64,000 nucleotides of DNA from an uncultured Latescibacterota bacterium (GTDB lineage: Bacteria > Latescibacterota > UBA2968), in assembly GCA_958295785.1 (NCBI GenBank), contig OY282377.1:3328385-3392384 (forward strand), given 5' to 3'. Numbering within the stretch: position 1 is the first letter of the stretch; each line of letters opens with the position of its first letter. The notes under the pieces were generated by a model that was given only the letters and a program-made list of their open reading frames with translations, was not told the origin of the DNA and ran no database searches. A program made the position numbers and the translations under genes. Of the stretch, positions 1-43,581 are shown in pieces.

Positions 1-1105
1 CGCCGACGTGTTGGGCATCCCCTTTGATTTTACGGCAAAGCCCGTCGTTGCCCCGCCGCAGAAGCCGCGAGCGACCATTCAGGTAAAAGCCATACGCCCC
101 GAACGAGACGCGCTCGAAATTCGCTTTCCGCGCGTGGCCGGGTATCGCGTGGCATTGCCCCAAGAGCGACTTCGCGCCGCGTTTCATGAAGACGCGACAT
201 TGGTACTCACGCCCGATCTCGTGGGGCCATCGCGCACGCGCAACCAAGGAATCATCGGCGAGGGCGTCGATCTCACGCTGGTTCACACCAACAACCTGCG
301 GCACGCGACCCTGCTCTTTCACCTGACCAAGCGGTTGCTCTACACAAAGTGGCGCGATCCGGGCGAAGTGCCAAAGCTCCACCTGTTCGGCCAACTCAAA
401 CAGATCACGCGCCAGTGGCTGGACGACCACCTCGTTTGCAAGGGCGGCACGTACCCCGCGCAACTGATGTACCAGGAACTGGCCGACATCGCCTGCGAGC
501 GCATCACCGCCGCGATCACGCGCCACCACGCCGCCGAGCGTCCCGTTGAGGCCATGCTCGATTCCTACAACCCCTGTGGCTCCACCGCGCAGGTCAATTT
601 CAACACGTCCAAGACCCGGCGCTACGAAACCGATGCCCGGCGTTGCCACGTCAACTGGGTCGTCCTCGACAGCGACTGGGAAGCCGAGTTTTGCCGCGTT
701 GCCGAATCCCATCCGCGCGTCAAAGCCTACGTGAAAAACCACAATCTCGGCCTAGAAGTGCCCTATCGCACGGGTGCAGAGTCCCGCACCTACATCCCGG
801 ATTTCATCGTGCAGATCGACGATGGCAAGGGCGATGACGACCCGTTGCACCTGATCGTGGAGATCAAGGGCTATCGCGGCGAAGACGCAAAGGACAAGAA
901 GACCGCGATGGAAACCCATTGGGTTCCGGGCGTGAACCGCCTCCGCGATTACGGGCGCTGGGCCTTTGCCGAATTTACAGATGTTTACGAGATCGAATCC
1001 GCATTTGCCGATAGCGTGCGCCGGTTGGTCGCGAACCCGCAACTGACCGAGCTCGGAAATGAGGCCGCCGAAGGCTCTGCGGGCGGAGATACGACACTAC
1101 ATTGA
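1..1105 (+). CDS. Type III restriction endonuclease Res subunit, C-terminal part (5' end outside window); PD-(D/E)xK nuclease region
   Basis: ORF open to the window edge. C-terminal motifs YIPDFIV ... DDPLHLIVEIKGYRGED fit a PD..ExK endonuclease core as in Res C-termini. A Type III-like Mod lies on the same strand 3.8 kb downstream. Family assignment is from memory, not search. Confidence 0.5.
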   Translation, partial: ADVLGIPFDFTAKPVVAPPQKPRATIQVKAIRPERDALEIRFPRVAGYRVALPQERLRAAFHEDATLVLTPDLVGPSRTRNQGIIGEGVDLTLVHTNNLRHATLLFHLTKRLLYTKWRDPGEVPKLHLFGQLKQITRQWLDDHLVCKGGTYPAQLMYQELADIACERITAAITRHHAAERPVEAMLDSYNPCGSTAQVNFNTSKTRRYETDARRCHVNWVVLDSDWEAEFCRVAESHPRVKAYVKNHNLGLEVPYRTGAESRTYIPDFIVQIDDGKGDDDPLHLIVEIKGYRGEDAKDKKTAMETHWVPGVNRLRDYGRWAFAEFTDVYEIESAFADSVRRLVANPQLTELGNEAAEGSAGGDTTLH

Positions 1106-1187
1106 GCAGGAGGCTGTTCATGGTTTGACGCAGACGCGAAAGGACGAACGGAGTATTGACAAAGCCATCAACCCTAGAAGTTGACAA

Positions 1188-2252
1188 ATGGTGATGGGTA
1201 TTCTATCTTTATTTGAGTCAACAAAAAAATTGACTAAATTACTCATCCCAAAAATGGAGCGAGAAATGCAAGAAGCATTACAGGACACAGGCGGCAATAA
1301 TCAGCACGACGAGTCCCGGCGAAAAATGGAACGAAAAATACAAAGCGCGTTACAAGGCTTGGCTACCAAACGGCGGCGTTCCGTTCTTTGCTTCTATGGA
1401 GATATGGATCAAAAATCTGTCCAAAGGGTGCGTCGTATCGCGTCTCAACTAAAAGCATCCAATAAGTTATCGGTCTTGTTGGATTCTCCCGGAGGCTATA
1501 TTGAGGACGCCTATAGAATAGTTTTGACACTGCGAGAATACGCGGAGGATATCGAAGTGCTCGTGCCTCGGTGGGCAAAAAGTGCTGCGACCTTTTTTTG
1601 TCTCGCGGCGAATACCATTTATATCGGACGGTATGGAGAGTTGGGACCCCTTGATCCACAGATGCTAGATCTACAAGGAAGTGCGATGCTGATCCCCGCA
1701 CTGGAATCGTTTAAGGCACTTGATCAACTGTTTATCTTTTCTCTGGATTCATTGGATGGGATAGTCCAGCAATTGTTAAATAATGCGCCTATGGATATTC
1801 CCTATGCAATAGAACACGCACAACCATTATTCGCCGCAATCGTGTCGCCACTGTACTCCCAAGTTGATCCATATGAATTAGGCAATGCGGGAAGGGCGTT
1901 GGCTACCAGCGAGGAATATGCGATGAGAGTCATGGAGAGATGGGGATATTCAGAGATGGAAGACGACGCAAGACGGTGGACAGTACGACATTTAGTTTGG
2001 AACTATCCGACGCATGGATTTGTTATTGACTTGAAGGAAGCGAAACAGATCGGACTGAAAGCCGAAAGACTTGACCATGACTGTGACGAGATGTGCAGGG
2101 AGATATTGGAACTGCTCGACAGCGCAGATATCTCTGGCTACATTGGCATTGAAGTCCCCCCACCAGATGTCCAAGACAAGGAGAACAGGCATGAACCCAA
2201 AGGAGAGGAAATTGCAGAGAGGGATTCGGAGAGGCAACAGAACGCCGTTTAG
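1188..2252 (+). CDS. ClpP-fold serine protease of the S49/SDH (SppA-like) family, AT-rich foreign gene
   Basis: Motifs LLDSPGGYIEDAY and SAATFFCLAANTIYIGRYGELGPLDPQ are typical of ClpP/S49/SDH peptidases. GC content is markedly lower than the flanks. RBS-like AG-rich leader. Confidence 0.55.
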   Translation: MVMGILSLFESTKKLTKLLIPKMEREMQEALQDTGGNNQHDESRRKMERKIQSALQGLATKRRRSVLCFYGDMDQKSVQRVRRIASQLKASNKLSVLLDSPGGYIEDAYRIVLTLREYAEDIEVLVPRWAKSAATFFCLAANTIYIGRYGELGPLDPQMLDLQGSAMLIPALESFKALDQLFIFSLDSLDGIVQQLLNNAPMDIPYAIEHAQPLFAAIVSPLYSQVDPYELGNAGRALATSEEYAMRVMERWGYSEMEDDARRWTVRHLVWNYPTHGFVIDLKEAKQIGLKAERLDHDCDEMCREILELLDSADISGYIGIEVPPPDVQDKENRHEPKGEEIAERDSERQQNAV

Positions 2253-2587
2253 ACGCGAGAAGCCGTCCGAGCGATCGTCTCTTCGCGTCATGGATTGGTT
2301 GCGGCAAAGGCGAATCTATCGCGGCATCCGCCATGTGCCTTTCATGCCCTATGAGGATGATAGATCCAAGGGCAGATCGGGGTACTGAAAAGTCCAATTT
2401 CTGATCACATTCGCTCCACGGCAGTACGTCTTGCTCCTATCCGCGCAGCGCGGGCGGTCATGGGTAAGGCCGATCCCTTGGAGCTTTTTTTTGCCAGAAT
2501 ACACGACGGGGTACAACTGATCGCCGCTTAGGCCAGTAGTACCCCGGTTTCGCTGAGTGTCCCAACCTTAGTCATCAAAGAAAGGAG

Positions 2588-2839
2588 ATGATCGTGAAAG
2601 ACATTACCATGAGTGCCGCCGAGAACTTGATCGTATCAGCACACCGATGCGCGGCGGCGAACCGCACGACCTTAAACGCGCAATTTCAGTTGTGGCTGAA
2701 AGACGACATTCAGCGCAACGGAGACTGCGTTCAACGCGAAAATCAGGTTGCCGAAGCCATGAAAGTCATCCGCGATCTGCAAGGCAACATCTTCACTGGC
2801 GGGCGAAAATTTACTCGGGAAGAGATGAATGAGCGTTGA
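2588..2839 (+). CDS. hypothetical 83-aa protein (cassette copy 1)
   Basis: RBS AAAGGAG 6 nt upstream. An identical paralog at 3668..3919 differs by 2 aa, so coding is conserved in the duplicate. Confidence 0.5.
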   Translation: MIVKDITMSAAENLIVSAHRCAAANRTTLNAQFQLWLKDDIQRNGDCVQRENQVAEAMKVIRDLQGNIFTGGRKFTREEMNER

Positions 2840-3110
2840 AAGTTTGCTATTGCCCCTAGGATTGGTTATCATAATCGGCCTTAGTTCTGAACACCCTGCT
2901 GGGGAGGCTTCTTCATTCCACCGGCTCCCCAAGTCGGCTCTTGGTGGACAACCGCCGGATATTGACCGGCACCTTCTTTGATCTTAAAATGGGCATCCTC
3001 TTAGGAATAGTGAATGCCTGCCTAAAAAAATGACTGGAGGTCAAATAAGGAATTAAGAAAGAATTTGACCAAGCTATTCAATCGCAAGAGACGATCCACC
3101 CGGAGGTTTT

Positions 3111-3590
3111 ATGGCTACAATGACCTTTGATACCTACGCCTTTGTCAAGGAACTGGTTCAGGCCGGAATGCCTGAAGAACAGGCTGAGGTGCTGGCGCGT
3201 TCACAAGCGGCGTTGATTGCTGAAAAATTGGCGACCAAGCAGGATTTGAAAGAACTGGAATTGTGTGTGAAACGCGACCTGAAAGAACTGGAAGTGCGAT
3301 TGAAACGCGATATGAAGGAGATGGAATTGCGTCTGAAGCACGATATCCAGAAATTGGAACGCGATATGAAGGAGATGGAAGCCAATTTGAAACGCGATAT
3401 GAAGGAGATGGAAGCCAATTTGAAACGCGATATGAAGGAGATGGAATTGCGTCTGAAACGCGATATCCAAAAATTGGAACGCGACATGAAGGAGATGGAA
3501 TTGCGTCTGAAGCACGATTTGACCTTGCGTCTCGGCTCCATGATGGTCGTCGCTATCGGCGTAGTCGCTGCGCTGGTGAAACTCCTATAA
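3111..3590 (+). CDS. DUF1640-like tail-anchored coiled-coil protein with 11-residue (33-bp) repeats, copy 1
   Basis: RBS GGAGG. N-terminus MATMTFDTYAFVKELVQAGMPEEQAEV..LATKQDL resembles DUF1640 (from memory). Hendecad repeats LKRDMKEMExx follow. C-terminal hydrophobic anchor MMVVAIGVVAALVKLL. Confidence 0.6.
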   Translation: MATMTFDTYAFVKELVQAGMPEEQAEVLARSQAALIAEKLATKQDLKELELCVKRDLKELEVRLKRDMKEMELRLKHDIQKLERDMKEMEANLKRDMKEMEANLKRDMKEMELRLKRDIQKLERDMKEMELRLKHDLTLRLGSMMVVAIGVVAALVKLL

Positions 3591-3667
3591 GGATAATCCA
3601 TAGGTGATGGAGAAGCGGGCTTTGTTGCCTTGTTGTTCATTTTGGTATTAGTCATCAAAGAAAGGAG

Positions 3668-3919
3668 ATGATCGTGAAAGACATTACCATGAGTGCCGAC
3701 GAGAACTTGATCGCATCGGCACACCGATGCGCGGCGGCGAACCGCACGACCTTAAACGCGCAATTTCAGTTGTGGCTGAAAGACGACATTCAGCGCAACG
3801 GAGACTGCGTTCAACGCGAAAATCAGGTTGCCGAAGCCATGAAAGTCATCCGCGATCTGCAAGGCAACATCTTCACTGGCGGGCGAAAATTTACTCGGGA
3901 AGAGATGAATGAGCGTTGA
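3668..3919 (+). CDS. hypothetical 83-aa protein (cassette copy 2)
   Basis: Near-identical duplicate of 2588..2839. Confidence 0.5.
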   Translation: MIVKDITMSADENLIASAHRCAAANRTTLNAQFQLWLKDDIQRNGDCVQRENQVAEAMKVIRDLQGNIFTGGRKFTREEMNER

Positions 3920-4190
3920 AAGTTTGCTATTGCCCCTAGGATTGGTTATCATAATCGGCCTTAGTTCTGAACACCCTGCTGGGGAGGCTTCTTCATTCCA
4001 CCGGCTCCCCAAGTCGGCTCTTGGTGGACAACCGCCGGATATTGACCGGCACCTTCTTTGATCTTAAAATGGGCATCCTCTTAGGAATAGTGAATGCCTG
4101 CCTAAAAAAATGACTGGAGGTCAAATAAGGAATTAAGAAAGAATTTGACCAAGCTATTCAATCGCAAGAGACGATCCACCCGGAGGTTTT

Positions 4191-4757
4191 ATGGCTACAA
4201 TGACCTTTGATACCTACGCCTTTGTCAAGGAACTGGTTCAGGCCGGAATGCCTGAAGAACAGGCTGAGGTGCTGGCGCGTTCACAAGCGGCGTTGATTGC
4301 TGAAAAATTGGCGACCAAGCAGGATTTGAAAGAACTGGAATTGTGTGTGAAACGCGACCTGAAAGAACTGGAAGTGCGATTGAAACGCGATATGAAGGAG
4401 ATGGAAGCCAATTTGAAACGCGATATGAAGGAGATGGAATTGCATCTGAAGCACGATATCCAGAAATTGGAACACGACATGAAGGAGATGGAAGCCAATT
4501 TGAAACGCGATATGAAGGAGATGGAATTGCGTCTGAAGCACGATATCCAGAAATTGGAACACGACATGAAGGAGATGGAAGCCAATTTGAAACGCGATAT
4601 GAAGGAGATGGAATTGCGTCTGAAACGCGATATCCAAAAATTGGAACGCGACATGAAGGAGATGGAATTGCGTCTGAAGCACGATTTGACCTTGCGTCTC
4701 GGCTCCATGATGGTCGTCGCTATCGGCGTAGTCGCTGCGCTGGTGAAACTCCTATAA
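4191..4757 (+). CDS. DUF1640-like tail-anchored coiled-coil protein, copy 2 (29 aa longer through extra hendecad repeats)
   Basis: Same N- and C-termini as 3111..3590. The internal repeat count is expanded. Confidence 0.6.
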   Translation: MATMTFDTYAFVKELVQAGMPEEQAEVLARSQAALIAEKLATKQDLKELELCVKRDLKELEVRLKRDMKEMEANLKRDMKEMELHLKHDIQKLEHDMKEMEANLKRDMKEMELRLKHDIQKLEHDMKEMEANLKRDMKEMELRLKRDIQKLERDMKEMELRLKHDLTLRLGSMMVVAIGVVAALVKLL

Positions 4758-4887
4758 GGATAATCCTAGGTGATGGAGAAGCGGGTTGCACCTGTCTTTA
4801 CAGTGAAGACATGCAGGAAGGTCAACAGATACGGGGCTTGACCATTCAAAATCCATTCAAGTAACCATTGCAGAAAGGATCGCGCCC

Positions 4888-7800
4888 ATGGCGAAACGAT
4901 CAAGAACGCCCAAATCCGTTGAGACCCTCACGCACGGCGACGCGACGCGCAAGAATATTCCCACCGCCGAGTATCAGCCCGTGATGCGAGCGGAGGATCA
5001 GGCCCCAATCCGCGTCGCATATCAGCGGCGCAACCGCGATCTCGATCCGCAACTCGTTTGGCGCGGCAAGGACGAGCAAGATTGGTCGGACCTCGTTGTG
5101 CCCGCGCCGCCGCTTTTCATTCAGGAAAAGGTGCATCCGAAAGTGCTGATCGACGATCTGTTGCGCCAAAGCGCGGAGACAGCCACCACCGCGCCGGGGT
5201 TCCAGCCCGATTTGTTCGCCGACTTCAACGGCCTGCCCGACCCAAGCGCGGCGACCGAGTTCTACCAGCACGACGCCAACTGGTCGAACCGCATGATCCT
5301 CGGCGACAGCCTGCAAGTGATGGCCTCCCTGGCCGAGCGTGAGGGCCTGCGCGGTCAAGTGCAGTGCATCTATATTGACCCGCCCTACGGCATCAAGTTC
5401 AATTCCAATTTCCAATGGTCCACCACCAGCCGCGACGTGCGAGACGGCAAGCGCGAGCACATCACGCGAGAGCCTGAGCAGGTGAAAGCGTTTCGGGATA
5501 CGTGGCGCGATGGCATCCATTCCTACCTGACCTACCTGCGCGACCGCCTGACCGTAGCGCGGGATTTGTTGACCGAGAGCGGTTCGGTGTTTGTGCAGAT
5601 CGGCGATGAAAATGTCCATCGGGTGCGGGCGTTGATGGATGAGGTGTTTGGGGATGAGAATTTTGTCGGGGAGATTATTTTTAAAACCCGTAGCACATCT
5701 ACCAGCAAAAATCTGTCTGCGTTGAATGATTACATCATATGGTATTGTAAAGATATTAATGCACTAAAATTCCGTCAATTTTACATGCAGAAAAGTGCTG
5801 ACAGGGCGCGTTTCAATTTTGCCGATATTGATGGCGAAATTTTCAGTGTCAATGAAAAAAATATCAATATCGGAAGCGTTAAGTATTTCTCAAGTAGTAG
5901 TCTGTTCTCAACAAGCGGCGGAGACGCTTCCCGGATTCCCTTTGAGTTCTGTGGGAAAAAATATACCCCGGCAATCTCTCGTGGATGGCGATGCTCACTT
6001 GATGGGCTATTACGCCTTACCTATGCAAGCCGTATATTCAACCAAGGTAATTCTATCCGCTATAAATACTTTCACGCCGATTTCCCATTCGTCGAGGGCG
6101 GGAATCTATGGGATGATCAAATGTCCGAGCAAAACAAATCTTATGTGGTGCAAACATCTCCAAGACCCATTGAACGCTGCATCCTCATGACCACCGACCC
6201 TGGCGACCTCGTTCTCGATCCCACCTGCGGATCTGGCACAACCGCTTATGTCGCCGAGCAATGGGGCAGGCGGTGGATCACCATTGACACCAGCCGAGTC
6301 GCGCTCGCGTTGGCGCGTGCCCGCATCATGGGGGCGCGCTATCCCTACTACCTCCTCTCGGACAGCGCGGAGGGGCAGCGCAAGGAAGCGGAAATCAGCC
6401 GCACCGCGCCATCGGAAACGCCCGCATACAACGACATCCGCCAAGGCTTTGTGTATCAGCGCGTGCCGCACATCACCCTGCGCGACATCGCCAACAACGC
6501 GGAAATCGACATCATTTGGGAGAAATATCAGAAAACGCTCAAATCGCTTCGGGCATCGCTCAACAAGGCGGTGAACGAGGATTGGCGGGAATGGGAAATC
6601 CCGCGCGAAGCCGACGAATCGTGGTCGGACGCGGTCAAGGCATTGCACGGCCAATGGTGGGAACAGCGCATCGCACGGCAAACAGAGATCGACGCGTCTA
6701 TCGCGGCGAAAGCGGACTGCGAGTATCTCTACGACAAGCCCTACGAGGAGAGAAAGAAGGTGCGCGTCGCCGGCCCGTTCACGGTGGATAGCCTATCGCC
6801 GCACCGCGTTTTGGGCATCGATGAAAACGACGACCTCATCGACAGCGCGGCAGATCCCGAACTCGAGCACAGCGAATCGCAGGATTTTTCCGGGATGATT
6901 TTGGAGCACCTCAAAACCGCTGGCGTGCAACAGGCGCGCAAAGACGACCGCATCGCGTTTTCATCCCTCGCGCCGTGGCCGGGCGATTTGGTTTGCGCCG
7001 AAGGCACGTACGCCGAGGGCGACGCGGATTCTGGCATTTACAAACGCGCTGGCATTTTCATCGGCCCCGAGTTTGGCACGGTCTCGCGTCCCGATCTGGC
7101 GAGGGCCGTGCGCGAGGCGGGCGAGGCCGATTTCGATGTGCTCATCGCCTGCGCGTTCAACTACGACGCCCAATCCACGGATTTCGACAAACTGGGGCGC
7201 GTCCCGGTGCTCAAAGCGCGCATGAACGCGGATCTTCACATGGCCGACGACCTCAAGAACACGGGCAAGGGCAATCTGTTCGTGATTTTCGGCGAGCCTG
7301 ATATTTCAGTGGCGAGTGAAGAGTGGTTAGTGGATGGTTCAGAAAGGAGAATCGCGCCGTATGACATCTTTAAGCTCGTATCGGGAACGGATCGGCTGGC
7401 AGAAGTCAATAGACTTGACCGTGAGGAGTTACGCGCTCATGCGGCGCTTTCCCGCCGAGGGGAGATATGGGATTACCTCACAGATGCGGCGTGCCGCGTC
7501 CTCAATTCCGGCGAACATCGCGGAGGGACAGGCAAGGCGAACAACGAGGGAATTTCTCCAGTCGCTTGGCATTGCGCGGGGGTCTCGGGCGGAACTGGAG
7601 ACCTTTCTGACCTTATGCGAAAGGCTGGCACTGATACGGAGAGAGGCTTCCGAGAACTTGTTGGCAGACTGCGCCGAGATCAACAAAATGCTCAACGCGC
7701 TGATGAAATCACGCGCCACTCGCCACTAACCACTCGCCACTATACACAGGTCACTGTCCACGGCGTTGACGTCTTCCACCCCAACACCGGCGAGATTCGC

Positions 7801-8070
7801 AGCGATGACGCCGATGGAATCGCCTGTTGGTTCATCGACACGGACTATAACGAGGAGAGTTTTTTCGTGCGCCACGCCTACTTTCTCGGCGCGAGCGATC
7901 CGTACAAATCCCTCAAGACCACGCTCAAAGCCGAGATCGACCCAAACGCTTGGGCCACGCTGCACAGCGACACCTCGCGGCCGTTCGCCAAACCCAAATC
8001 CGGGCGCATCGCGGTCAAGGTGATCAACCACTTGGGCGACGAGGTGATGAAAGTGTTTCGGGTTTCATGA
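4888..8070 (+). CDS. mod: Type III-like Mod / beta-class N6-adenine DNA methyltransferase (1060 aa including a ~145-aa in-frame insertion)
   Basis: Motif IV IYIDPPYGIKFNS, then a low-GC TRD, then motif X/I SPRPIERCILMTTDPGDLVLDPTCGSGTT. Conserved C-terminal tail VHGVDVFHPNTGEI..IACWFIDTDYNEESFFVRHAYF..IAVKVINHLGDEVMKVFRV. Confidence 0.8.
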   Translation: MAKRSRTPKSVETLTHGDATRKNIPTAEYQPVMRAEDQAPIRVAYQRRNRDLDPQLVWRGKDEQDWSDLVVPAPPLFIQEKVHPKVLIDDLLRQSAETATTAPGFQPDLFADFNGLPDPSAATEFYQHDANWSNRMILGDSLQVMASLAEREGLRGQVQCIYIDPPYGIKFNSNFQWSTTSRDVRDGKREHITREPEQVKAFRDTWRDGIHSYLTYLRDRLTVARDLLTESGSVFVQIGDENVHRVRALMDEVFGDENFVGEIIFKTRSTSTSKNLSALNDYIIWYCKDINALKFRQFYMQKSADRARFNFADIDGEIFSVNEKNINIGSVKYFSSSSLFSTSGGDASRIPFEFCGKKYTPAISRGWRCSLDGLLRLTYASRIFNQGNSIRYKYFHADFPFVEGGNLWDDQMSEQNKSYVVQTSPRPIERCILMTTDPGDLVLDPTCGSGTTAYVAEQWGRRWITIDTSRVALALARARIMGARYPYYLLSDSAEGQRKEAEISRTAPSETPAYNDIRQGFVYQRVPHITLRDIANNAEIDIIWEKYQKTLKSLRASLNKAVNEDWREWEIPREADESWSDAVKALHGQWWEQRIARQTEIDASIAAKADCEYLYDKPYEERKKVRVAGPFTVDSLSPHRVLGIDENDDLIDSAADPELEHSESQDFSGMILEHLKTAGVQQARKDDRIAFSSLAPWPGDLVCAEGTYAEGDADSGIYKRAGIFIGPEFGTVSRPDLARAVREAGEADFDVLIACAFNYDAQSTDFDKLGRVPVLKARMNADLHMADDLKNTGKGNLFVIFGEPDISVASEEWLVDGSERRIAPYDIFKLVSGTDRLAEVNRLDREELRAHAALSRRGEIWDYLTDAACRVLNSGEHRGGTGKANNEGISPVAWHCAGVSGGTGDLSDLMRKAGTDTERGFRELVGRLRRDQQNAQRADEITRHSPLTTRHYTQVTVHGVDVFHPNTGEIRSDDADGIACWFIDTDYNEESFFVRHAYFLGASDPYKSLKTTLKAEIDPNAWATLHSDTSRPFAKPKSGRIAVKVINHLGDEVMKVFRVS
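7361..7729 (+). CDS. four-helix-bundle protein (23S rRNA intervening-sequence protein family) nested inside the mod ORF in another frame
   Basis: RBS AAAGGAGAA then ATG. Translation YRERIGWQKSIDLTVRSYALMRRFPAEGRYGITSQMRRAASSIPANIAEGQARRTTREFLQSLGIARGSRAELETFL matches the family hallmark IPANIAEG. Lies entirely within 4888..8070 in frame +2. Confidence 0.75.
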   Translation: MTSLSSYRERIGWQKSIDLTVRSYALMRRFPAEGRYGITSQMRRAASSIPANIAEGQARRTTREFLQSLGIARGSRAELETFLTLCERLALIRREASENLLADCAEINKMLNALMKSRATRH

Positions 8071-8100
8071 CCGCTTGAGACATCCATCAAAGGAGTTGCG

Positions 8101-8400
8101 ATGCTCAACACTGCGTTGGCCGTTGTGAAAAACGGCAAAATCGAAACGATAGAACACATTGCGTTGTCCGAAGGCCAAAAAGTGCTGGTAACTCTGTTGC
8201 CCGACGATGCGACTTTCTGGCAAGAAGTTAGCCAACAAACGCTGAAACGAATTTGGGACAACAAAGAGGACGATGTATATGCCCAATTAGACGTCGCCAA
8301 ACGCCGGGAACATGTGGCTCAGTTGAAGAATTCTTTCCAAAAAATGAGCCGCGATATGGGGCCTCGTAAATGGACGCGGGAAGATCTCCATGCCCGATAA
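8101..8400 (+). CDS. hypothetical protein with DUF104-like (AF2212-type antitoxin-like) N-terminus
   Basis: RBS AAAGGAG. N-terminus LAVVKNGKIETIEHIALSEGQKVLVTLLPDD resembles the DUF104 pattern. Confidence 0.45.
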   Translation: MLNTALAVVKNGKIETIEHIALSEGQKVLVTLLPDDATFWQEVSQQTLKRIWDNKEDDVYAQLDVAKRREHVAQLKNSFQKMSRDMGPRKWTREDLHAR

Positions 8401-8404
8401 AGAT

Positions 8405-8430
8405 AGGGAGGTCAAAGAAATTTGACCTCC
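8405..8430 (+). terminator. perfect hairpin gggaggtcaaa-gaaa-tttgacctccc after 8101..8400
   Basis: 11-bp stem with a GAAA loop. The 3' tail is A/T-rich. Confidence 0.4.
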
Positions 8431-8627
8431 CTAAATTATTGTAAAATATTTGGATGCGGAAAATTAAATCCAATGTTTGGATGTTGCGATATTAGAATTT
8501 TCAGATATATGTTGACGAATGAGATGGATTTTGATACATTTCGTAAAATTCGACATTCAACGAGAAGTATCTAAAATATCTTGTTGTAAGTGGTGGTTAT
8601 TTTCCAGTACAGACGCGAGAGGATATC

Positions 8628-9893
8628 ATGCTGACGCAACGCGAACTGGGGCAGCGGTTGAAGCGTGCGCGCGAGGCAATCGGGTTGACCCAACAGCAGG
8701 TTGCCGATAGCGTCGCGCTTACCCGCGTTGCAATTTCCCAAATCGAATCGGGACGACGGGCGGTCAGTTCATTTGAACTCCTGCATCTCTCGCGTCTTTA
8801 CGGGCGAGATATGGTCAGTTTTTTTGACGAAAATGCCCACATGCAGGAGGCGGAAAACGCACTGACTGTCCTGTTTCGCACGCATCCCGAACTGGTTCAA
8901 ACCCCTGCGTGCAGAGAAGCATTGCAACGGGCCGATGAGATATTCCGAGAATATCTCAATTTGAAAGCCCTTTTGGATTTGGATACAGAACAGAACCTGC
9001 CGCCTGTATATGCTTGTCCCGAACCGAGAAATGTTTGGGAAGCCATTCATAAGGGCGAGCGCGTCGCCGAGGCGGAACGCAGTCGTCTGGCGTTGGGGCA
9101 TGATCCCATCCGCGATATGACCGAGTTGGTGGAATCGCAGGGCATACCCATCATTGAAATCAATTTGGATGATCAGATATCTGGTCTCTTTATCGCCCAT
9201 ACAGAAACGCAGTTGTGCATCTTCGTCAACCGAGAACAACTCGGTAGGGCAAGGGCGCGAGTCGCATTTACTATCGCCCATGAATACGGTCACATCTTGC
9301 TTGACCGGGATAAAGTCAGTGCCATCAGCAGAATCTCAAACGAGCGCGATTTGTTTGAAGTGCGTGCGAATGCTTTTGCCGCCGCGTTTCTCATGCCGGA
9401 AGAAGGGGTGAGTCAATTTCTCAAAACCATCGGCAAAGGCGCGTCCAGCCGCGAAAAGCTGTTGGCCTATACCGTGCCCGACCTGCTCGTGGGGCATCAC
9501 CGCCGCTTGGCATCCACCCAAGTCCTCACGCTTTACGATGTCGTCAAGTTCTGCGCGTATTTTGGAACCAGCTTTGAAGCCGCCCTGTACAGATTGAGAA
9601 ACACAAAGTTTCTTTCCGAGGGATCATTTGATCAACTCTACGAACAAAAAGAAAAAGCGAGGAAAATTGGACAACATCTCAAAATAGAAGAAGGAAGGCG
9701 AGACCACCCCAGCAGTTTCGCGGTCAATTTCACGGGGCTGGCTATCGAAGCCTATCGGCGCGACAAAATCACGTACGACAAATTGGTCAATCTCGCAGCA
9801 CAAGTGAAATTTGATTCTGAGGTCATAGACGAAGTACTCTCCTGCATGGGACTGGAAAACAATCGCGAAGAAGCGATCTATCTTCCGGAGTGA
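8628..9893 (+). CDS. XRE-family HTH fused to an ImmA/IrrE-family (DUF955) metallopeptidase domain
   Basis: N-terminus LTQRELGQRLKRAREAIGLTQQQVADSVALTRVAISQIESGRR (HTH_XRE). HEYGHILLD supplies the HExxH motif, and ANAFAAAFLMPEEGV matches ImmA/IrrE. Confidence 0.7.
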   Translation: MLTQRELGQRLKRAREAIGLTQQQVADSVALTRVAISQIESGRRAVSSFELLHLSRLYGRDMVSFFDENAHMQEAENALTVLFRTHPELVQTPACREALQRADEIFREYLNLKALLDLDTEQNLPPVYACPEPRNVWEAIHKGERVAEAERSRLALGHDPIRDMTELVESQGIPIIEINLDDQISGLFIAHTETQLCIFVNREQLGRARARVAFTIAHEYGHILLDRDKVSAISRISNERDLFEVRANAFAAAFLMPEEGVSQFLKTIGKGASSREKLLAYTVPDLLVGHHRRLASTQVLTLYDVVKFCAYFGTSFEAALYRLRNTKFLSEGSFDQLYEQKEKARKIGQHLKIEEGRRDHPSSFAVNFTGLAIEAYRRDKITYDKLVNLAAQVKFDSEVIDEVLSCMGLENNREEAIYLPE

Positions 9894-9926: not shown

Positions 9927-10418
9927 GTGATTACGGACGCAAATATTCTGATCAATTTTATCAAAATTGACCGTGTGGATATTCTCCAACACCTGCGAGT
10001 GTATACTTTTTACTTGCCCGAGGAAGTATATCGGGAAATCACATATCCAGCACAACGGCTCGTTTTAGATCGCGCCCTCAAAAATGGATGGCTGAAAAAA
10101 ATTGTGATAACGGATCAAAATGAATTGCGTTCTTATGCAAAATACAAACGACAAATGGGTGATGGAGAGGCCGCGTGTTTGGCGATTGCGATTTGTCGAA
10201 AGTGGCTCATGGCCTGCGATGAACAAAAAAAGAAACTGATTTCCAGAACAGTTTAGCATCATTTGGGAGCGGGCTATCTCCTGAATACACCGGGTATTTT
10301 GCTCAAGGCCATACGCGAGAGCATTCTCACTATATCACAAGCAGACGCAATCAAAAACACGTTGGCGCAGAACCGATTTGTCATGCCATTTGCCTCTTTC
10401 CAGAATTTTAGCGCACCA
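9927..10418 (+). pseudogene. PIN-domain (DUF3368-like VapC-type) nuclease gene interrupted by one in-frame TAG at 10254-10256
   Basis: GTG start. N-terminus ITDANILINF..DGEAACLAIAI is PIN-like. After the TAG the same frame continues HHLGAGYLLNTPGILLKAIRESIL..., a PIN C-terminus. Confidence 0.55.
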
Positions 10419-10513
10419 TAGCCCTGCTTCGAAAAAAAAGGCGTGAGGGTTTGTTTCCGCACGGCCTGTTACTCGGTCCAAAGCGATCAAATTTATGGCA
10501 TAAAAGAAATCCA

Positions 10514-10593
10514 TTCGCCAAACCCATATCCGGGCGCATCGCGGTCAAGGTGATCAACCACTTGGGCGACGAGGTGATGAAAGTGTTTCGGGT
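10514..10593 (+). repeat. direct repeat copy 2 of the mod 3' terminus (80 bp, 1 mismatch vs 7984-8063)
   Basis: ttcgccaaaccca[t]atccgggcgcatcgcggtcaaggtgatcaaccacttgggcgacgaggtgatgaaagtgtttcgggt matches the mod C-terminal coding sequence. Confidence 0.9.
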
Positions 10594-10611: not shown

Positions 10612-13600
10612 ATGAATTTTCCAGACCAAAGCCATATTGACCGAGTCCGTGAAGCACTCTGGCAACGTTCAAGCGATGCGTCCGTCATGGTTGGGAGCGG
10701 TTTCAGCCGAAACGCCTTGAAATCCCGACCAGATGCAGACGACCCTCCAACATGGCGCGAAGTGACAAAAGCGGTATCCGATAAACTGTATTCCCAAGAC
10801 GACGGTAGCGATGTGATTTTGAGATCCTCGGCAACGGGCGACTTTTTGCAGTTGGCCCAAGAGTATGAGGCCGCGTTCGGACGCGGGGACCTGCATCTCT
10901 TTATCCAAAGGTTGATTCGGGACGACGATTTCAAGCCAGGTGATCTACATACGCGGTTGCTACGGCTTCCTTGGCGCGATGTCTTCACAACCAATTGGGA
11001 CACGCTTTTGGAACGGGCGTGTTCTTTTGTAGCTGATCGCGCCTACAGCGTTGTGAGAAACATGGATGAGATTTCGTTGGCTGATCAGCCTCGCATTATC
11101 AAACTGCACGGATCGCTTCCCGCACATTTCCCGCTGATTTTCACGGAAGAAGATTATCGAACTTATCCAAGGAAATTTGCTCCGTTCGTGAACACCGTTC
11201 AGCAAGCAATGATGGAAACAGTATTTTGTCTGATCGGCTTCTCGAGTGATGATCCAAATTTTTTGCAATGGTCGGGATGGGTTCGTGACAATCTGGGTGA
11301 ATCCGCCCCGAAGATATATTTGGCCGGATGGCTGGATTTGTCACCTCACAGGCGCAGGATGCTTGAAGACCGCAACATGGTTTCTATTGATCTTGCGCGT
11401 CATCCGCATGCGAACAAATGGCCGGAACACAAGCGACATCAATACGCAACCAATTGGATTTTGCATTCATTGGAACGTGGACGCCCATACGAAGTCACAG
11501 AGTGGCCTTCTCGATCAGAGCGGCAACTTCTACCAATACCGAAAGAACTTCAACCTGTTAAAGAAGTTGTTCCTGATGAACCAAGAGAGGAGATAGATGC
11601 GCCAGCGTGGCCTGGAAATGATTCGGGAAATTTATTAGAAAAGGTGAAGGAATGCCTCAAGATTTGGACGCATAACAGGAAAATCTATCCGGGTTGGTTA
11701 GCTACCCCCGCAAGTGCGCGACATTCCATGAGTTGGGACACCGAACAATGGGAATCACCGATTTTAAGCGTGCTTCCCAACTTTGCTCCAGTAGAACGCT
11801 TGAAAGCCATTCGGGAGTTGATGTGGCGCAGGGAAATCATGCTGGATCCGATCTCTAACGAACTTGAAACCGCCGCCCAAAAAATCTTGGAAGAGATAGA
11901 CTGCCAAGCTCGAACAATTGGGGGTGTTGCCGATACAAGCGTTAATTGGGCGGACATGCGGGAAACTTGGCGTACTGTCGCGCTCGTGCTCGTGACAGCA
12001 ACGAGATTTGAATTTGATGAAGACCTGTTTGAGGAACGGATTGCGGCACTGTCCCCTTTCCGTGACGATCATCCAGACATCGTTCAACGGATACATCACG
12101 AGCGTTGTCTATGGGCGGTTTATGCGCTCAATTTCGAGAAGTTGGAAGGCTTACTCAAGGATTGGAAAACTGAAAATTGTGATCCAGTCTGGATGATGAG
12201 AAAAGCCGCTATCCTTTTCGAAATAAATCAAAATGACGACGCAATTCAACTGATCAACCACGCGCTTTCGGCTATCCGTGAGAATCTTGGCGATAAACGT
12301 AGCTTAGCCGGTCCTTCCCGCGAGGGTTGGGCACTGTGGTTGGCACTGGCATTTGAAGAAGGATGGGGGGAACCAAATAAAAACCTTATTGACGCACCTC
12401 CAGCTTTCAGAAGATGGCAGGAGTTGGCATCGCTGAAATGTGATGCCTTCACAGAGAAACACTGGTACGCCGAAGCAATCAAAGGCAGTGAAGAAAAAAA
12501 AGAAAAACTGCCCTTCGACCTTGGTCAGGGGCAAGGGTATCACTTTCACCTATCCAATGCCGAATATGATCGATATATTGCAGCTTATCGTGCAATTCGT
12601 CTCTCTGAAGTAGCCGGGTTACCTCCATCTACTAGCAGTTTTGTCGTAGCTTCGGATATATTGAAACTTGCCGCCGATAGGCTAGCCATGACGAATCCAG
12701 AGATGACCGCACGTCTGATCCTTCGAGTTTTGAACTATGACGGGGACTCTATGCTCACGCATGTTCTTTCGCGTCCTCGGGTGGCCGCTATGCCAGTGGA
12801 CTCGGTGGAAAGGCTTATTCAGGTCTGTAACAATGCCATTGAATACGCGCTCCCTTGGATATCGGGTGGACGCAGGCATGCCATGTTCTGGATTGAACGA
12901 TTTCGCGTTGTCTTGGAAGTACTATCTCGGCTTGTTCTCCGATCTGATCCCGAAACGGCAGAAACTATTTTTGATAAAGCACTTGAATATTACCGAAATG
13001 ATCACATAGCTCAGTGCCGGCTTTTAGAAGGACCTGTCCAACATATTCTGAAACGTTCTTGGGAAACCTTACCTAAAGATCGCCAGACTGACCGCGTGCT
13101 CGATCTGTTGAATGCGCCTATTGTTGGTATAGACGGATTTACTGGATCTGAAGGCTACCCAGATCCCGGGAAATTGCTATATCACAGAAATCCTCTGCCC
13201 ATTCGCACGTCGGACAACGAGAACCACTGGCAAGAAATCATCAGTCTGAATGTGCGTGGTTTGAACGCTGGTGGGGAAGCGCGCAAACGAGCATCTGTCA
13301 GAATAGCCCAAATAGCCTCGAAAGGACGGCTGTCGGATGATGAGGAATCGCAAGTCGCTCAAGCACTTTGGAGCCAAGATCATACCAACCCCAATGATCT
13401 ACCGGGTGGAACTAATATCTATGAGTGGGTATTTCTTCTATTACCACAGCCGAAGCCAGGCCTTGCAGAAGAGCGTTTTCGTCGCAAATGGCTCAATACT
13501 GACAACCTCTCTCAAGGCGATGGGGCCGATTTGGATGAAATTCTCTCGCAAGTTGGTTCTGCGATTTCCGGACTAAAAGCTCACCAGCATCAGCTAACGC

Positions 13601-14415
13601 TTTCGGATAAAGAGAAGAACTATCTTGCAGACCTTGTCGGGCGGTGGGCAGAATGTCGACCGTTGCCAAAAATAGGGCACTTTCCAGATAATGAGCGCAT
13701 TCGTCTTGAGAATCGGGCCATTGATGGCCTGCTATTTATCCTATTGGCAGTGTCGATTCCAGAAACCACAGCTACAAAACTCTACAAAAAAGTTCAAGAC
13801 CTAAAAGAATCTGACACGCCAGGGCTGAGGCTTATCGCCAGCATTGTTAAGGCATTGCCCGATCAGGTTGATGAAATCGCTTTGTTTGTAAGAATGGAAT
13901 TGACATCTGATAATAAAGGCTGGGCCGGGAATGCTACACGGGGATTAAATTTTTGGTTAGAGGCTGCGTCCGATTCAACGCTCGGCATACAGCCTCCACC
14001 TGATGACTTGGTTCATGAAATTGGCATCGTAATCGCTACCCGTAGAAAAGTAGTTCTCAAACAGGCATTGGAGATAGCAAAATGGGTATTTGAGGAAGGA
14101 AGTGAGGAACAGAGAGAAGTCATTAGCCAGTTGACGATACAGGGGCTGGGTTATCTGATTGAGGAATTGCGATACGACAGAGAGCACGATCAGGATAATG
14201 ACTTTGATGTGCCGTTTTTGCGCTGGGTCTGCACACATCTTGCCTTAGCAATGGCGGAGCATGGCTTGGCCGACGACCCGACTGTTGCTCGCTGGCTGGA
14301 GATTGCCAAAGAAGACCCGCTCCCGGAAGTGCGGCAGGCAAAGCATTCCGCTTTTGCTCGTCAGCATAAGGAGAAGGAAAGCACGGGCGAAGAGCCAATG
14401 TCTCAAGCCGAGTAA
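10612..14415 (+). CDS. SIR2-like (SIR2_2/DSR-type) NADase-domain protein with ~950-aa alpha-helical C-terminal region; defence-associated sirtuin-like
   Basis: RBS AAAGGAG. N-terminal motifs VMVGSGFSRN, FTTNWDTLLE, IIKLHGS, LIGFSSDDPNF match the SIR2_2 family. Size and architecture resemble DSR1/DSR2. Confidence 0.65.
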   Translation: MNFPDQSHIDRVREALWQRSSDASVMVGSGFSRNALKSRPDADDPPTWREVTKAVSDKLYSQDDGSDVILRSSATGDFLQLAQEYEAAFGRGDLHLFIQRLIRDDDFKPGDLHTRLLRLPWRDVFTTNWDTLLERACSFVADRAYSVVRNMDEISLADQPRIIKLHGSLPAHFPLIFTEEDYRTYPRKFAPFVNTVQQAMMETVFCLIGFSSDDPNFLQWSGWVRDNLGESAPKIYLAGWLDLSPHRRRMLEDRNMVSIDLARHPHANKWPEHKRHQYATNWILHSLERGRPYEVTEWPSRSERQLLPIPKELQPVKEVVPDEPREEIDAPAWPGNDSGNLLEKVKECLKIWTHNRKIYPGWLATPASARHSMSWDTEQWESPILSVLPNFAPVERLKAIRELMWRREIMLDPISNELETAAQKILEEIDCQARTIGGVADTSVNWADMRETWRTVALVLVTATRFEFDEDLFEERIAALSPFRDDHPDIVQRIHHERCLWAVYALNFEKLEGLLKDWKTENCDPVWMMRKAAILFEINQNDDAIQLINHALSAIRENLGDKRSLAGPSREGWALWLALAFEEGWGEPNKNLIDAPPAFRRWQELASLKCDAFTEKHWYAEAIKGSEEKKEKLPFDLGQGQGYHFHLSNAEYDRYIAAYRAIRLSEVAGLPPSTSSFVVASDILKLAADRLAMTNPEMTARLILRVLNYDGDSMLTHVLSRPRVAAMPVDSVERLIQVCNNAIEYALPWISGGRRHAMFWIERFRVVLEVLSRLVLRSDPETAETIFDKALEYYRNDHIAQCRLLEGPVQHILKRSWETLPKDRQTDRVLDLLNAPIVGIDGFTGSEGYPDPGKLLYHRNPLPIRTSDNENHWQEIISLNVRGLNAGGEARKRASVRIAQIASKGRLSDDEESQVAQALWSQDHTNPNDLPGGTNIYEWVFLLLPQPKPGLAEERFRRKWLNTDNLSQGDGADLDEILSQVGSAISGLKAHQHQLTLSDKEKNYLADLVGRWAECRPLPKIGHFPDNERIRLENRAIDGLLFILLAVSIPETTATKLYKKVQDLKESDTPGLRLIASIVKALPDQVDEIALFVRMELTSDNKGWAGNATRGLNFWLEAASDSTLGIQPPPDDLVHEIGIVIATRRKVVLKQALEIAKWVFEEGSEEQREVISQLTIQGLGYLIEELRYDREHDQDNDFDVPFLRWVCTHLALAMAEHGLADDPTVARWLEIAKEDPLPEVRQAKHSAFARQHKEKESTGEEPMSQAE

Positions 14416-16556: not shown

Positions 16557-16594
16557 AAGGGTGCTTATGTGTAATTGAGCACCCTTCTTTTTTT
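16557..16594 (+). terminator. rho-independent terminator-like hairpin + T7 run
   Basis: aagggtgcttatgtgtaattgagcaccctt followed by cttttttt. Confidence 0.45.
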
Positions 16595-16656
16595 GAGGAG
16601 AATGTGGCATGGACATAACAGCGGTCTATCTCGATGGTGGATACAAGGAGACGCCA

Positions 16657-17013
16657 ATGTCTAAAATTGACTTTTACACCTGGAACAGATGAAGCACCTG
16701 TCGCAAGGTGAAAGCGTGGCTTTCACGAGAAGGGGTGGATGTGGTGGAAAGGGATTTTTTTGTGGATGGCTTTACAGACGCAGAACTTCGGGCGTTGCTC
16801 GGAGACCTGCCGCCGGATGACGTATTCTCGTGGCGGAGTCCGTCTGCGCGTGCGCTGAGGCGCGACCGAGATGCGGTGTCGGCAGACGAACTGATCCGTC
16901 TGATGGTGGCACAGCCTCGGCTGATCCGCCGGCCCTTGATCCGCGCAGGCGGGCGCCTGTTTGTGGGCACGGACAAGGCGGCGATGGCAGAGGCATTTCC
17001 CGGATTGGCGTGA
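16657..17013 (+). CDS. ArsC/Spx/YffB-family thioredoxin-fold protein with in-frame TGA at the first position of the CxxC-equivalent motif; candidate selenoprotein or nonsense pseudogene
   Basis: RBS AAGGAG 6 nt before ATG. Translation MSKIDFYTWNR-[TGA 16690-16692]-STCRKVKAWLSREGVDVVERDFFVDGFTDAELRALL...LIRRPLIRAGGRLFVG matches the family over ~118 aa. In Spx the same position reads SPSCTSCRK. A perfect 8-bp hairpin gtgaaagc-gtg-gctttcac starts 15 nt after the TGA. Confidence 0.5.
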
Positions 17014-17043
17014 CGCGCTTGCGTACAAGAAAGGGATTCACCG

Positions 17044-17470
17044 ATGAATTTCAACACCACCACATTTCGCCAATTGATGGGCAATGGCCTGAGTGATCGC
17101 GTGCCCCAGTTCCAACGCGATTATTCATGGGGCACGGACGAATGGGACGACCTGTGGCAGGACATGGTCGGGCTGTTTGGCGAAGACCCGGACCCGCGCA
17201 TTACATGGGCTACTCGGTGTTGCAATCGCCCGACAACCGAGCGTTCGACATTCTCGACGCGAGGCGTTCACCTATTTGGCAACAGCGGACAATCGCACGT
17301 TGGGAAAGACCGGCTTCTCAGAAAAGCGTCCTGTTTATCAAAAAAGCCAATTCGCCATCACTCGCAAATCAGCAGAAAACTGCGACACTTGGACGACCGA
17401 CAAAATTCGTTCACATCAGAACTGGATGGGCGAACGGGCATCTGGCGCGTCAATTTCTGAACCGACCTCA
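17044..17470 (+). pseudogene. DUF262 (GmrSD/ParB-like nuclease N-terminal domain) gene remnant, frameshifted and truncated
   Basis: NFNTTTFRQLMGNGLSDRVPQFQRDYSWGTDEWDDLWQDM matches the DUF262 N-terminal motif. The continuation (..ILDARRSPIWQQRT ~ DGQQRLT) appears only in other frames. Overlapping 3-frame ORFs signal decay. Confidence 0.5.
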
Positions 17471-17471
17471 A

Positions 17472-43002: not shown

Positions 43003-43581
43003 ATGAGCGAAGCCATCGCCTTTGACACACATCAATTCGTCAAGCACCTGACAGCCAATGGCTTTACCGAACAACAGGCCGAGGTCCTGGCCAACGAGCA
43101 GGTCAACTTGCTCAACAGCAACTTGGCAACCAAATCCGACATCGCGGCTGTCAAGGCCGATATCGAGGCTGTCAAGGCCGACATCGAGGCCCTACAGTTG
43201 GCTATTGAGTCCAAAATCGAGACCCAGCAGTTGGAGACCGAGTCCAAAATTGAGGCACTGCGATTGTCCACCAAGGCCGACATCGAGGCGCTGCGATTGG
43301 CGACTGAGTCCAAAATTGAGGCACTGCAATTGTCCACCAAGGCCGACATTGAGGCTGTCAAAGCCGACATCGAGGCGTTGCGATTGGCGACTAAAGCTGA
43401 TCTTGAGGCCCAGCAGTTGGCGACTGAGTCCAAAATTGAGGCGTTGCGCCTGTCCACTGAAGCCAAAATTGAGGCTATCAAATCCGATCTGCTGAAATGG
43501 ATATTTGGCCTCGCGCTCAGCTTGGGCGGCCTGATAGTCGGTCTATTTGCCATCGCAATCAAGATGCTTGGGGCGAACTGA
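43003..43581 (+). CDS. DUF1640-like tail-anchored hendecad-repeat protein, locus 2 copy 1
   Basis: MSEAIAFDTHQFVKHLTANGFTEQQAEVLANEQ..LATKSDI, then 11-aa repeats IEALRLATESK etc., then a C-terminal TM helix. Confidence 0.6.
   Translation: MSEAIAFDTHQFVKHLTANGFTEQQAEVLANEQVNLLNSNLATKSDIAAVKADIEAVKADIEALQLAIESKIETQQLETESKIEALRLSTKADIEALRLATESKIEALQLSTKADIEAVKADIEALRLATKADLEAQQLATESKIEALRLSTEAKIEAIKSDLLKWIFGLALSLGGLIVGLFAIAIKMLGAN

Follow-up and report, generated by a model that had tools for sequence, protein, structure and literature searches.

Genes between res and mod of a Type III-like restriction-modification operon from a Latescibacterota bacterium: a probable cargo slot holding three separately acquired pieces

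Type III restriction-modification (R-M) systems such as EcoP1I and EcoP15I combine a Mod subunit, a beta-class N6/N4 methyltransferase in which DPPY precedes FxGxG and a variable target-recognition domain (TRD) is central, with a Res subunit composed of a superfamily 2 (SF2) helicase and a C-terminal PD-(D/E)XK nuclease, and their genes run in the order mod then res. Such enzymes require two unmethylated sites in inverse orientation for ATP-dependent cleavage, and their Mod subunit hemimethylates DNA. In other defence operons, namely Hma, BREX, DISARM and Type I R-M, accessory genes embedded among the core genes were surveyed by Payne et al. 2024 under the term "guilt by embedding", with an occupancy of 62.7% for Hma loci and co-orientation in 96.7% (bioRxiv 10.1101/2024.01.29.577857). 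Characterised embedded examples are PrrC in the EcoprrI Type IC locus and TgvAB in a Type I R-M cluster of Vibrio cholerae (PMC11411939). Here we describe a 64,000-nucleotide stretch of an uncultured Latescibacterota bacterium (assembly GCA_958295785.1, contig OY282377.1, positions 3,328,385 to 3,392,384 of the forward strand; hereafter the window), in which the stop of a res gene and the start of a mod gene are separated by 3.8 kb (1106-4887, 3782 bp). We consider it probable that a mobile Type III-like R-M operon has its cargo slot here, filled by three pieces that were acquired independently and do not form one system. The features of the R-M genes and of the interval are as follows.

2 to 1105, + strand: 3' third of res, PD-(D/E)XK endonuclease domain (open reading frame (ORF) 8-1105); the window begins within the gene
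1181 to 1209, + strand: promoter-like site TTGACA-17-TATCTT (consensus scan, 10/12 matches, not evidence of function)
1266 to 2252, + strand: SDH-type ClpP-fold serine protease, 328 aa, PF01972 (ORF open from 1188)
2290 to 2388, + strand: conserved mini-ORF (MDWLRQRRIYRGIRHVPFMPYE...; MDWLRQRRI...), putatively coding, 3' of the protease gene
2413 to 2492, + strand: long hairpin followed by U8, terminator-like (minimum free energy -35.7 kcal/mol, z -1.9)
2568 to 3647, + strand: tandem unit, copy 1 (vapB, vapC 5' stub, DUF1640 segment, 10 nt of the vapC 3' part, 26-nt filler)
2594 to 2839, + strand: vapB antitoxin gene, copy 1 (81 aa from GTG 2594; 83 aa from ATG 2588, 2588-2839), 72 homologues
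2829 to 2845, + strand: vapC 5' stub, copy 1 (ATG start codon at 2829 and MSVES), with the 11-bp vapB overlap of intact pairs
2846 to 3611, + strand: inserted DUF1640 segment, copy 1 (265 bp upstream plus gene), no vapBC homology
2962 to 2990: promoter-like site in the DUF1640 upstream region (consensus scan)
3111 to 3590, + strand: DUF1640/CCDC90-like tail-anchored coiled-coil protein, 159 aa (predicted), PF07798 1.1e-11
3612 to 3647, + strand: duplication junction, 10 nt of the vapC 3' part (3612-3621) and 26-nt filler
3648 to ~4790, + strand: tandem unit, copy 2, 99% identical to copy 1 apart from an additional 87 bp of coiled-coil repeats
3674 to 3919, + strand: vapB antitoxin gene, copy 2 (83-aa ORF 3668-3919), A→D and V→A near the N-terminus relative to copy 1
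4191 to 4757, + strand: DUF1640/CCDC90-like protein, 188 aa (29 residues longer), PF07798 2.1e-11
4778 to 4864, + strand: vapC 3' remnant, last 28 codons and stop, from a nucleotide match to L178
4888 to 8070, + strand: mod, 1060 aa

An ORF map, profile searches and alignments placed the ORFs and the tandem duplication where the initial annotation of this DNA had located them. As that annotation held, a Type III-like R-M pair flanks the interval. ORF 8-1105 is the C-terminus of Res, matching NCBIfam NF046055 (BPTD_3080 family restriction endonuclease) at 1.8e-111 over positions 634-968 of the 970-position model and Pfam RE_endonuc PF19778 at 1.1e-5. Since the window starts inside res, the helicase part (PF04851 ResIII) is visible only in the full-length, 1029-aa Res of a sister locus, L081; Res thereby joins an SF2 helicase to a C-terminal PD-(D/E)XK endonuclease, as in EcoP1I and EcoP15I. 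Mod matches PF01555 (7e-33, residues 158-474) and the PADLOC MTase_III model PDLC03632 (1343 bits), and in its translation motif IV, YIDPPYG (DPPY), precedes motif I, DPTCGSGTT (FxGxG), with the TRD between them. This is the Type III motif order, and we read Mod as a probable N6/N4 amino-methyltransferase of that kind. Unlike in EcoP1I and EcoP15I, res precedes mod, both in all 75 two-gene loci described below and in annotated plasmids, and we therefore use the label Type III-like. Mod is also far above the classical size at ~920-1060 aa, and NCBI assigns Res to a family of its own, BPTD_3080.

To place the interval in context, we scanned one genome per species with the Res C-terminus and found at least 577 relatives, of which the best 80 were analysed; 75 of these loci hold both genes. 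The family pairs a BPTD_3080-type Res with a Type III Mod of ~920 aa, and RefSeq plasmids also carry it, annotated in the order res then mod. Among the best 80 of the at least 577 relatives, Res at 71-92% identity spans many phyla, and the R-M system is therefore highly mobile. The closest relatives include L001 and L003, metagenome-assembled genomes (MAGs) labelled Candidatus Latescibacterota, with Res 90-92% identical to ours. The spacing of the two genes, measured from res stop to mod start, varied between -2 and 4607 bp in the 75 loci, being at most 150 bp in 17, 150-500 bp in 8, 500-1500 bp in 26 and more than 1500 bp in 24. Extra sequence exceeded 150 bp in 58 of the 75 and 500 bp in 50, and the 3782-bp gap of the window is the third largest. 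The initial annotation had assumed that res and mod normally lie a few bp apart, which does not describe this family.

The contents of the slot change from locus to locus. Recurrent cargo families were Schlafen AlbA_2 with HATPase_c_4 (10 loci), two Bro-N groups (12), Fic/DOC, HepT with MNT, 23S-rRNA-IVP four-helix bundles, ORF6N, YhcG/DUF1016, DUF1828, AAA_15/21, HTH-M78 peptidase, HNH-DUF222 and insertion sequence (IS) transposases, and 75 of the 87 inserted ORFs of at least 100 aa (86%) are co-oriented with res and mod. The slot is thus empty in a minority of loci and otherwise holds changing, mostly co-oriented accessory genes. Comparing synteny across related loci, we found that the gap is inserted cargo, as initially proposed, and not a conserved housekeeping cluster. 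The base composition of the window also sets these parts apart: the cargo has a GC content of 0.48, against 0.61 for the conserved res and mod parts and 0.54 for the other 50 kb, and cargo and R-M core both depart from the host background.

The slot genes have the properties by which Payne et al. 2024 define embedded cargo, lying between core genes, varying between loci and sharing their orientation. Both data sets show variable accessory genes between restriction subunit genes, a shared orientation (96.7% there, 86% here), a large occupied share (62.7% of Hma loci there, 58/75 here) and contents that mix toxin-antitoxin, defence-like, mobility and uncharacterised genes. The difference lies in the host operon, since the survey covered Hma, BREX, DISARM and Type I R-M, whereas ours is a Type III-like res-mod family. 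In an earlier statement, no described Type III system was known to have this arrangement, but embedding as such is already described in other defence operons. Such inserts are the rule in this R-M family, and the present one adds a further case to a habit that defence operons are known for. Embedding is hereby extended to Type III-like operons, of a family that is widespread and highly mobile. In contrast to PrrC in EcoprrI, functional coupling is not indicated for the cargo of the window.

We found the pieces of this cargo apart in the nearest relatives. Three more of these relatives, L081, L173 and L174, are environmental metagenome contigs reached through protein look-ups. In L003 and L173, the protease gene and its downstream sequence are followed directly by mod, without a DUF1640 gene; window positions 1180-2493 align with L003 14069-15379, and the sequence from window 4872 onward continues at L003 15389. 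In L174 the order is res, protease gene, intact small-ORF/PIN pair, MNT/HepT, mod. L001 lacks both the protease and the 83-aa gene; its mod is preceded by three DUF1640 genes in tandem and then an ~85-bp element corresponding to window 2408-2490. The protease also occurs without R-M genes in L175, where it adjoins an nSTAND NTPase (61% identity), and in L176 a homologue adjoins an unrelated methyltransferase-HNH gene. All pieces were together only in the window and its near-twin L081. This separation, with the protease lacking DUF1640 in L003, L173 and L174 and DUF1640 lacking the protease in L001, speaks against the earlier view of the interval as a single module.

Spelled out, that view would be of an integrated auxiliary defence or abortive-infection module, in which the protease acts on or with the coiled-coil proteins and the 83-aa regulator alongside the R-M system. 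All genes are indeed co-oriented, and the arrangement is 99.3% conserved in L081. Moreover, the protease has weak matches to the NfeD N-terminal domain, with 1510-N among its fold matches, and NfeD-type proteases cleave a membrane-anchored partner encoded alongside. We nonetheless regard an integrated module as very improbable, given that its components are separated in the closest relatives, that the 83-aa protein is an antitoxin and what is left of its PIN toxin gene lies on either side of the DUF1640 genes, that DUF1640 arrays lie beside an ABC transporter without any protease, and that matches of the cargo proteins to PADLOC protease and defence models amount to coiled-coil noise.

The first piece is the protease gene, whose start is the Met codon at 1266 as judged from homologue starts. 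The protein matches PF01972 above the cut-off (5e-11, 42.6 bits against 31.3), in the core only (positions 78-168 of 286); it reaches 55 bits with the NCBIfam SDH equivalog NF047768, below the 250-bit cut-off, and S49_N and CLP_protease matches are also below cut-off. It is therefore best described as a diverged relative of the SDH family (PF01972/NF047768) of marginal membership. The AlphaFold2 (AF2) model is ClpP-like, with a mean predicted local distance difference test (pLDDT) score of 87, and its best Foldseek matches (probability 1.00, TM-scores of 0.54-0.66 on the target) were ClpP, SppA and the stomatin-specific protease 1510-N. The model bears out the ClpP fold assigned initially. Among 1280 homologues, S74, G76, G77, K105, S106, D130 and H250 were invariant in 30 sampled at 45-84% identity, and the protease looks catalytically intact, with D130 a candidate for the triad Asp. 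Like SDH, SppA-S49, NfeD-1510-N and phage head-maturation proteases, it has a ClpP-like core, a GG oxyanion motif and the Ser nucleophile in AKSAAT; it differs from SDH and other ClpP-fold proteases in a helical insertion of ~100 residues and the lack of a membrane anchor. Neither a signal peptide nor a membrane segment was found in it.

Two conserved elements lie just downstream of this gene. The mini-ORF motif is kept after the protease genes of L081, L173, L174 and L175, even where protease identity is 61%, and in L174 it forms the N-terminus of a 76-aa ORF that overlaps, or is coupled to, the PIN gene. Copies of the hairpin, 80-100% identical, occur in L081, L003, L173, L001 and L034, and in L001, L003 and L173 the hairpin lies directly 5' of mod.

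What the protease does may be indicated by its other settings. Its best phage families are phrog_21683 and phrog_11747, both uncharacterised PHROGs, at ~1e-30. Phage relatives lie beside an XRE/ImmA pair in a Klebsiella prophage and after the integrase in a P2-like Burkholderia phage, and another relative sits between zot and int on an inovirus-like plasmid; a scan of viral contigs yielded a single relative. Since these are phage accessory positions, a defence or exclusion role is plausible, and the protease and its relatives recur where defence genes gather, at the res-mod slot, by an nSTAND NTPase, by a methyltransferase-HNH gene and as temperate-phage accessory genes. An auxiliary defence role for the protease alone is possible. 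That the protease, perhaps with a small adjacent ORF, is a new one- or two-gene anti-phage or abortive-infection system is a tentative proposal, which we think more doubtful than not. A search of PADLOC-DB 2.0 gave no match at E<=0.01 for the protease or VapB, an exact-sequence look-up of the protease gave no match, a literature search on the SDH protease family returned only papers on an unrelated "SDH", and one on ClpP-like proteases in anti-phage defence returned nothing relevant.

Around 51 distant relatives of the protease, the 67 neighbouring ORFs were mixed, with a few methylases, a DpnII enzyme, AAA ATPases, recombinases and IS elements, and the only consistent neighbour was a small ORF without a Pfam match. 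These relatives (25-30% identity) are followed by a conserved family of ORFs of ~80-85 aa, with members of up to 103 aa, often with overlapping stop and start codons; in the close subfamily the mini-ORF MDWLRQRRI... takes that place instead. The small proteins are homologous to one another and have no Pfam or PHROG match; examples are L111 2475-2732 and L119 1958-2212, and the ORF is also present in L124, L128, L129, L163, L167 and L170. This pattern suggests that the distant protease and the 80-103-aa ORF form a two-gene module.

The position of the protease might instead reflect a role within the R-M enzyme, as a third component in one sub-lineage that degrades Res (restriction alleviation) or tunes the Res:Mod ratio. 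Five related loci have it between res and mod. In the window and L174 it comes straight after res, and in L003 and L173 only other inserted genes, such as transposases, intervene. A precedent is Type I restriction alleviation, where ClpXP-dependent proteolysis removes HsdR. However, that precedent needs an unfoldase, and none is encoded here; the protease was present in one of the 80 loci analysed, plus the contigs from protein look-ups; homologues at 61% identity lie by an nSTAND NTPase without R-M genes; and distant relatives reside in prophages and on the inovirus-like plasmid. We therefore find regulation of the R-M enzyme quite unlikely and favour a stand-alone gene in a cargo slot. For the anti-restriction hitchhiker that the initial annotation had offered as an alternative, we found nothing in support.

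The second piece is a ruined toxin-antitoxin (TA) locus. The 83-aa protein has 72 homologues of 72-124 aa, mostly 73-83, in which the C-terminal tail GGRKFTREEMNER is invariant. For three of them, with identities of 85%, 75% and 62%, a PIN-domain gene of 138-141 aa follows with an 11-bp overlap, and in two of the three cases the pair lies in a chromosomal context unlinked to R-M genes. The small antitoxin with its conserved tail and the overlapping PIN toxin gene are the hallmarks shared with type II VapBC systems. The window departs from them in having two copies of the antitoxin and a toxin gene of which only 17 bp of the 5' end and 87 bp of the 3' end are left. L178 carries an intact vapBC, to which window 2581-2845 and 3661-3925 are 90-91% identical in DNA, and L178 positions 5693-5800 match window 4778-4885 at 90%; ~313 bp of vapC between the matched parts are absent from the window. 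The PIN protein of L082 confirmed the 3' remnant in a tblastn search (79% identity over 33 aa, E 4e-14, window 4760-4858). With the toxin gene reduced to 17 nt and 87 nt, the locus would be an orphan antitoxin and not a TA system, and the 83-aa protein is predicted to be a VapB antitoxin without its toxin. The initial annotation had described a duplicated two-gene cassette; the duplication is real, and the cassette is not, as the 83-aa protein is VapB and its PIN partner was gutted by the DUF1640 segment. Its sequence pattern, a short strand and then two helices, would fit an N-terminal DNA-binding fold such as ribbon-helix-helix; the AF2 monomer model has a pLDDT of 55, and a profile search of VapB against the PDB gave nothing significant.

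The start of vapC now opens a chimeric 50-aa ORF (MSVESLLLPLGLVIIIGLSS...) at 2829-2981 and 3909-4061, with a hydrophobic N-terminal stretch. It keeps the 11-bp overlap and may be translationally coupled to vapB, and it is probably a by-product of the replacement of vapC.

The third piece is the DUF1640 gene. Both proteins match PF07798 (45.3 and 44.4 bits, cut-off 33.5), their stalks are built of 11- and 7-residue repeats (DNA spacings 33, 21 and 54), and a hydrophobic 19-mer, LGSMMVVAIGVVAALVKLL, stands at the very end, so they are presumably tail-anchored. The initial description of a tail-anchored, DUF1640-like hendecad protein thus held, with heptads interspersed among the 11-residue repeats. 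The proteins share with the CCDC90 family (MCUR1, CCDC90B and prokaryotic homologues) an N-terminal head, a beta-layer motif, a coiled-coil stalk and a C-terminal anchor; the motif, LATKQD, fits the consensus [aliphatic]-A-T-K-[polar]-[DE] (PMC4786415). Unlike in that family, the genes in the lineage of the window are tandemly amplified and their stalks vary by 7- and 11-residue steps. They are predicted to be tail-anchored coiled-coil membrane proteins, with no demonstrated link to restriction. Matches of these proteins to PADLOC models (ZorA tail, LeoC, LmuB; best 5e-6) reflect coiled-coil composition and were rejected.

The two tandem units lie head to tail with a 1080-bp period, and the copies differ by three substitutions and by coiled-coil indels of 33 and 54 bp. 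Only 10 nt of the vapC 3' part are present in copy 1, and the duplication would therefore be later than the replacement. The junction filler resembles the end of the spacer between the DUF1640 genes of L001, whose res-mod gap holds DUF1640 genes 77-86% identical to that of the window. An internally repetitive region invites the explanation that the duplication is an assembly artefact of a repetitive coiled-coil gene. L081, from an independent assembly, agrees with the window in copy number, in the lengths of 159 and 188 aa and in the junction, and the copies differ at specific positions, so the duplication is almost certainly genuine and not an artefact. We also considered whether CCTAGGATT at 2855 and its complement at 4762 could be terminal inverted repeats that would make the DUF1640 segment a small mobile element. 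We dropped this idea, because the motif contains a 6-bp palindrome and occurs only in the window and L081; it is absent around the DUF1640 genes of L001 and of the arrays described next.

Tandem amplification is widespread among these genes. DUF1640 had 1297 homologues, and many distinct paralogues share the same multi-megabase contigs. The metagenome contigs L088 (7653-10777) and L089-L092 (~580-9530), which carry close homologues, hold 8-13 tandem DUF1640 genes of 87-170 aa, ~65-100 bp apart, adjoining an ABC transporter operon; gene number and length vary between contigs, and IS1595 copies are inserted. We know of no description of such arrays. A second tandem pair lies in the window itself at 43003-43581 (192 aa) and 43677-44342 (221 aa), ~33% identical to the embedded pair, and its members differ by 29 residues, equal to the difference between the embedded copies. 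Tandem duplication with a change of stalk length is thus a habit of the gene family and not a property of the R-M locus.

L081 also bears on how stable the cargo is. It is 99.3% identical to window 1-5666, including both copies, their 159- and 188-aa lengths and the junction. Further downstream it has a different Mod TRD (5667-6169), an extra IS1595 and a TIR gene after mod, and no Dsr2. The slot cargo has therefore been stable while the rest of the island turned over. The segment 5667-6169 is the low-GC (0.43) middle of mod and has no similarity to L081, whose mod is otherwise 97-99% identical; it is presumably the TRD, and the difference looks like a specificity swap between close relatives.

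Together, these findings suggest a history in four layers. The strongly conserved res 3' and mod 5' ends, 70-92% identical across phyla, would serve as recombination anchors between which cargo is swapped or picked up locally, and co-orientation would let cargo be transcribed with the operon so that mod is not cut off. The oldest layer would be the protease gene with its short downstream ORF and terminator-like hairpin, the state of L003 and L173, the protease being a stand-alone accessory or defence-type gene, not an enzyme subunit, and the only piece likely to be useful here. A vapBC pair, ~90% identical in DNA to chromosomal vapBC of environmental metagenome contigs, would then have been inserted between hairpin and mod. 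Next, a DUF1640 gene with its own upstream region would have replaced ~313 bp of vapC, so that the toxin was destroyed and vapB remained, an orphan antitoxin or perhaps an autorepressor. Finally, the 1080-bp vapB-ΔvapC::DUF1640 unit would have been duplicated in tandem, after which the number of coiled-coil repeats drifted (159 versus 188 aa).

Several points weigh against this history. Our 80 loci were the top-ranking ones among at least 577 hits, which makes them no random sample. Both vapB-DUF1640 copies are kept at identical lengths in two diverged genomes, and the unit could be under selection, which a decayed TA locus would not predict. The protease-bearing slots, five in all, seem to belong to a single lineage, L003 being a Latescibacterota MAG and Latescibacterota showing the highest Res identities, and they may represent a single acquisition instead of repeated recruitment. 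The terms "accessory" and "orphan" are ones we infer from sequence, the anchor mechanism is read from the pattern, and no integrase or att-like site was found. Rfam and tRNA scans of the whole window were empty, and there is therefore no tRNA-type integration site or known RNA element in it.

The entire gap, protease included, could also be inert, decaying hitch-hiking DNA, a reading that the destroyed vapC, the IS elements in the L003 and L173 slots and the L003 Mod frame, which ends after 384 aa, would fit. We judge this unlikely, as the protease keeps all invariant catalytic-type residues, with 30 homologues conserved at 45-84%, and two diverged genomes have kept vapB and the two DUF1640 ORFs whole. 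Independent acquisition of three pieces remains our preferred explanation, and the locus would then offer a dated, base-resolved case of slot evolution in which a TA system was captured, its toxin destroyed by another insertion and the resulting unit duplicated. It also cautions that neighbours within a defence operon do not thereby make up one system. With roughly three in four sampled loci occupied, this slot is a place to look for new defence candidates, the ClpP-fold protease foremost.

Among the other loci, the slot of L003, the closest relative in the genome collection, holds two DDE transposase genes, and IS elements are also present in that of L173. In L003 an insertion of ~1.08 kb (16557-17636) lies in mod, and the ORF stops after 384 aa; this copy of the R-M system is probably inactivated.

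The mod gene of the window contains a further gene. A complete gene for a 131-aa 23S-rRNA-IVP/four-helix-bundle protein (7334-7729; PF05635, 1.4e-34) is nested in the mod ORF but read in another frame. It falls in an in-frame insertion of ~450 bp (7305-7756) that is missing from Mods of 918-926 aa. The Mod frame is open through the insert, giving 1060 aa in the window, 1067 aa in L081 and 1075 aa in L011 (IVP 52% identical), and shuffling synonymous codons of the IVP gene kept the Mod frame open in 2.2% of trials for the window and 10.7% for L011. On either side of the insert, the Mod-frame residues of the window, L011, L022 and L027 are conserved; in L002 the frame is broken. The IVP gene may thus be a genuine gene within a gene at a tolerant linker.

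Beyond mod lies a second cargo block, bracketed by an 83-bp direct repeat (98%) of the mod 3' end at 7981-8063 and 10511-10593.

8101 to 8400: 99-aa ORF ending RKWTREDLHAR
8628 to 9893: RmrA-like HTH + M78 peptidase gene
9927 to 10256: truncated DUF3368/PDC-S70 gene
10612 to 14415: Dsr2 gene (NCBIfam 2e-190), beyond the second repeat

In L021 and L173, Dsr2/SIR2_2 directly follows the mod stop, and the region 3' of mod is thus a second insertion hotspot.

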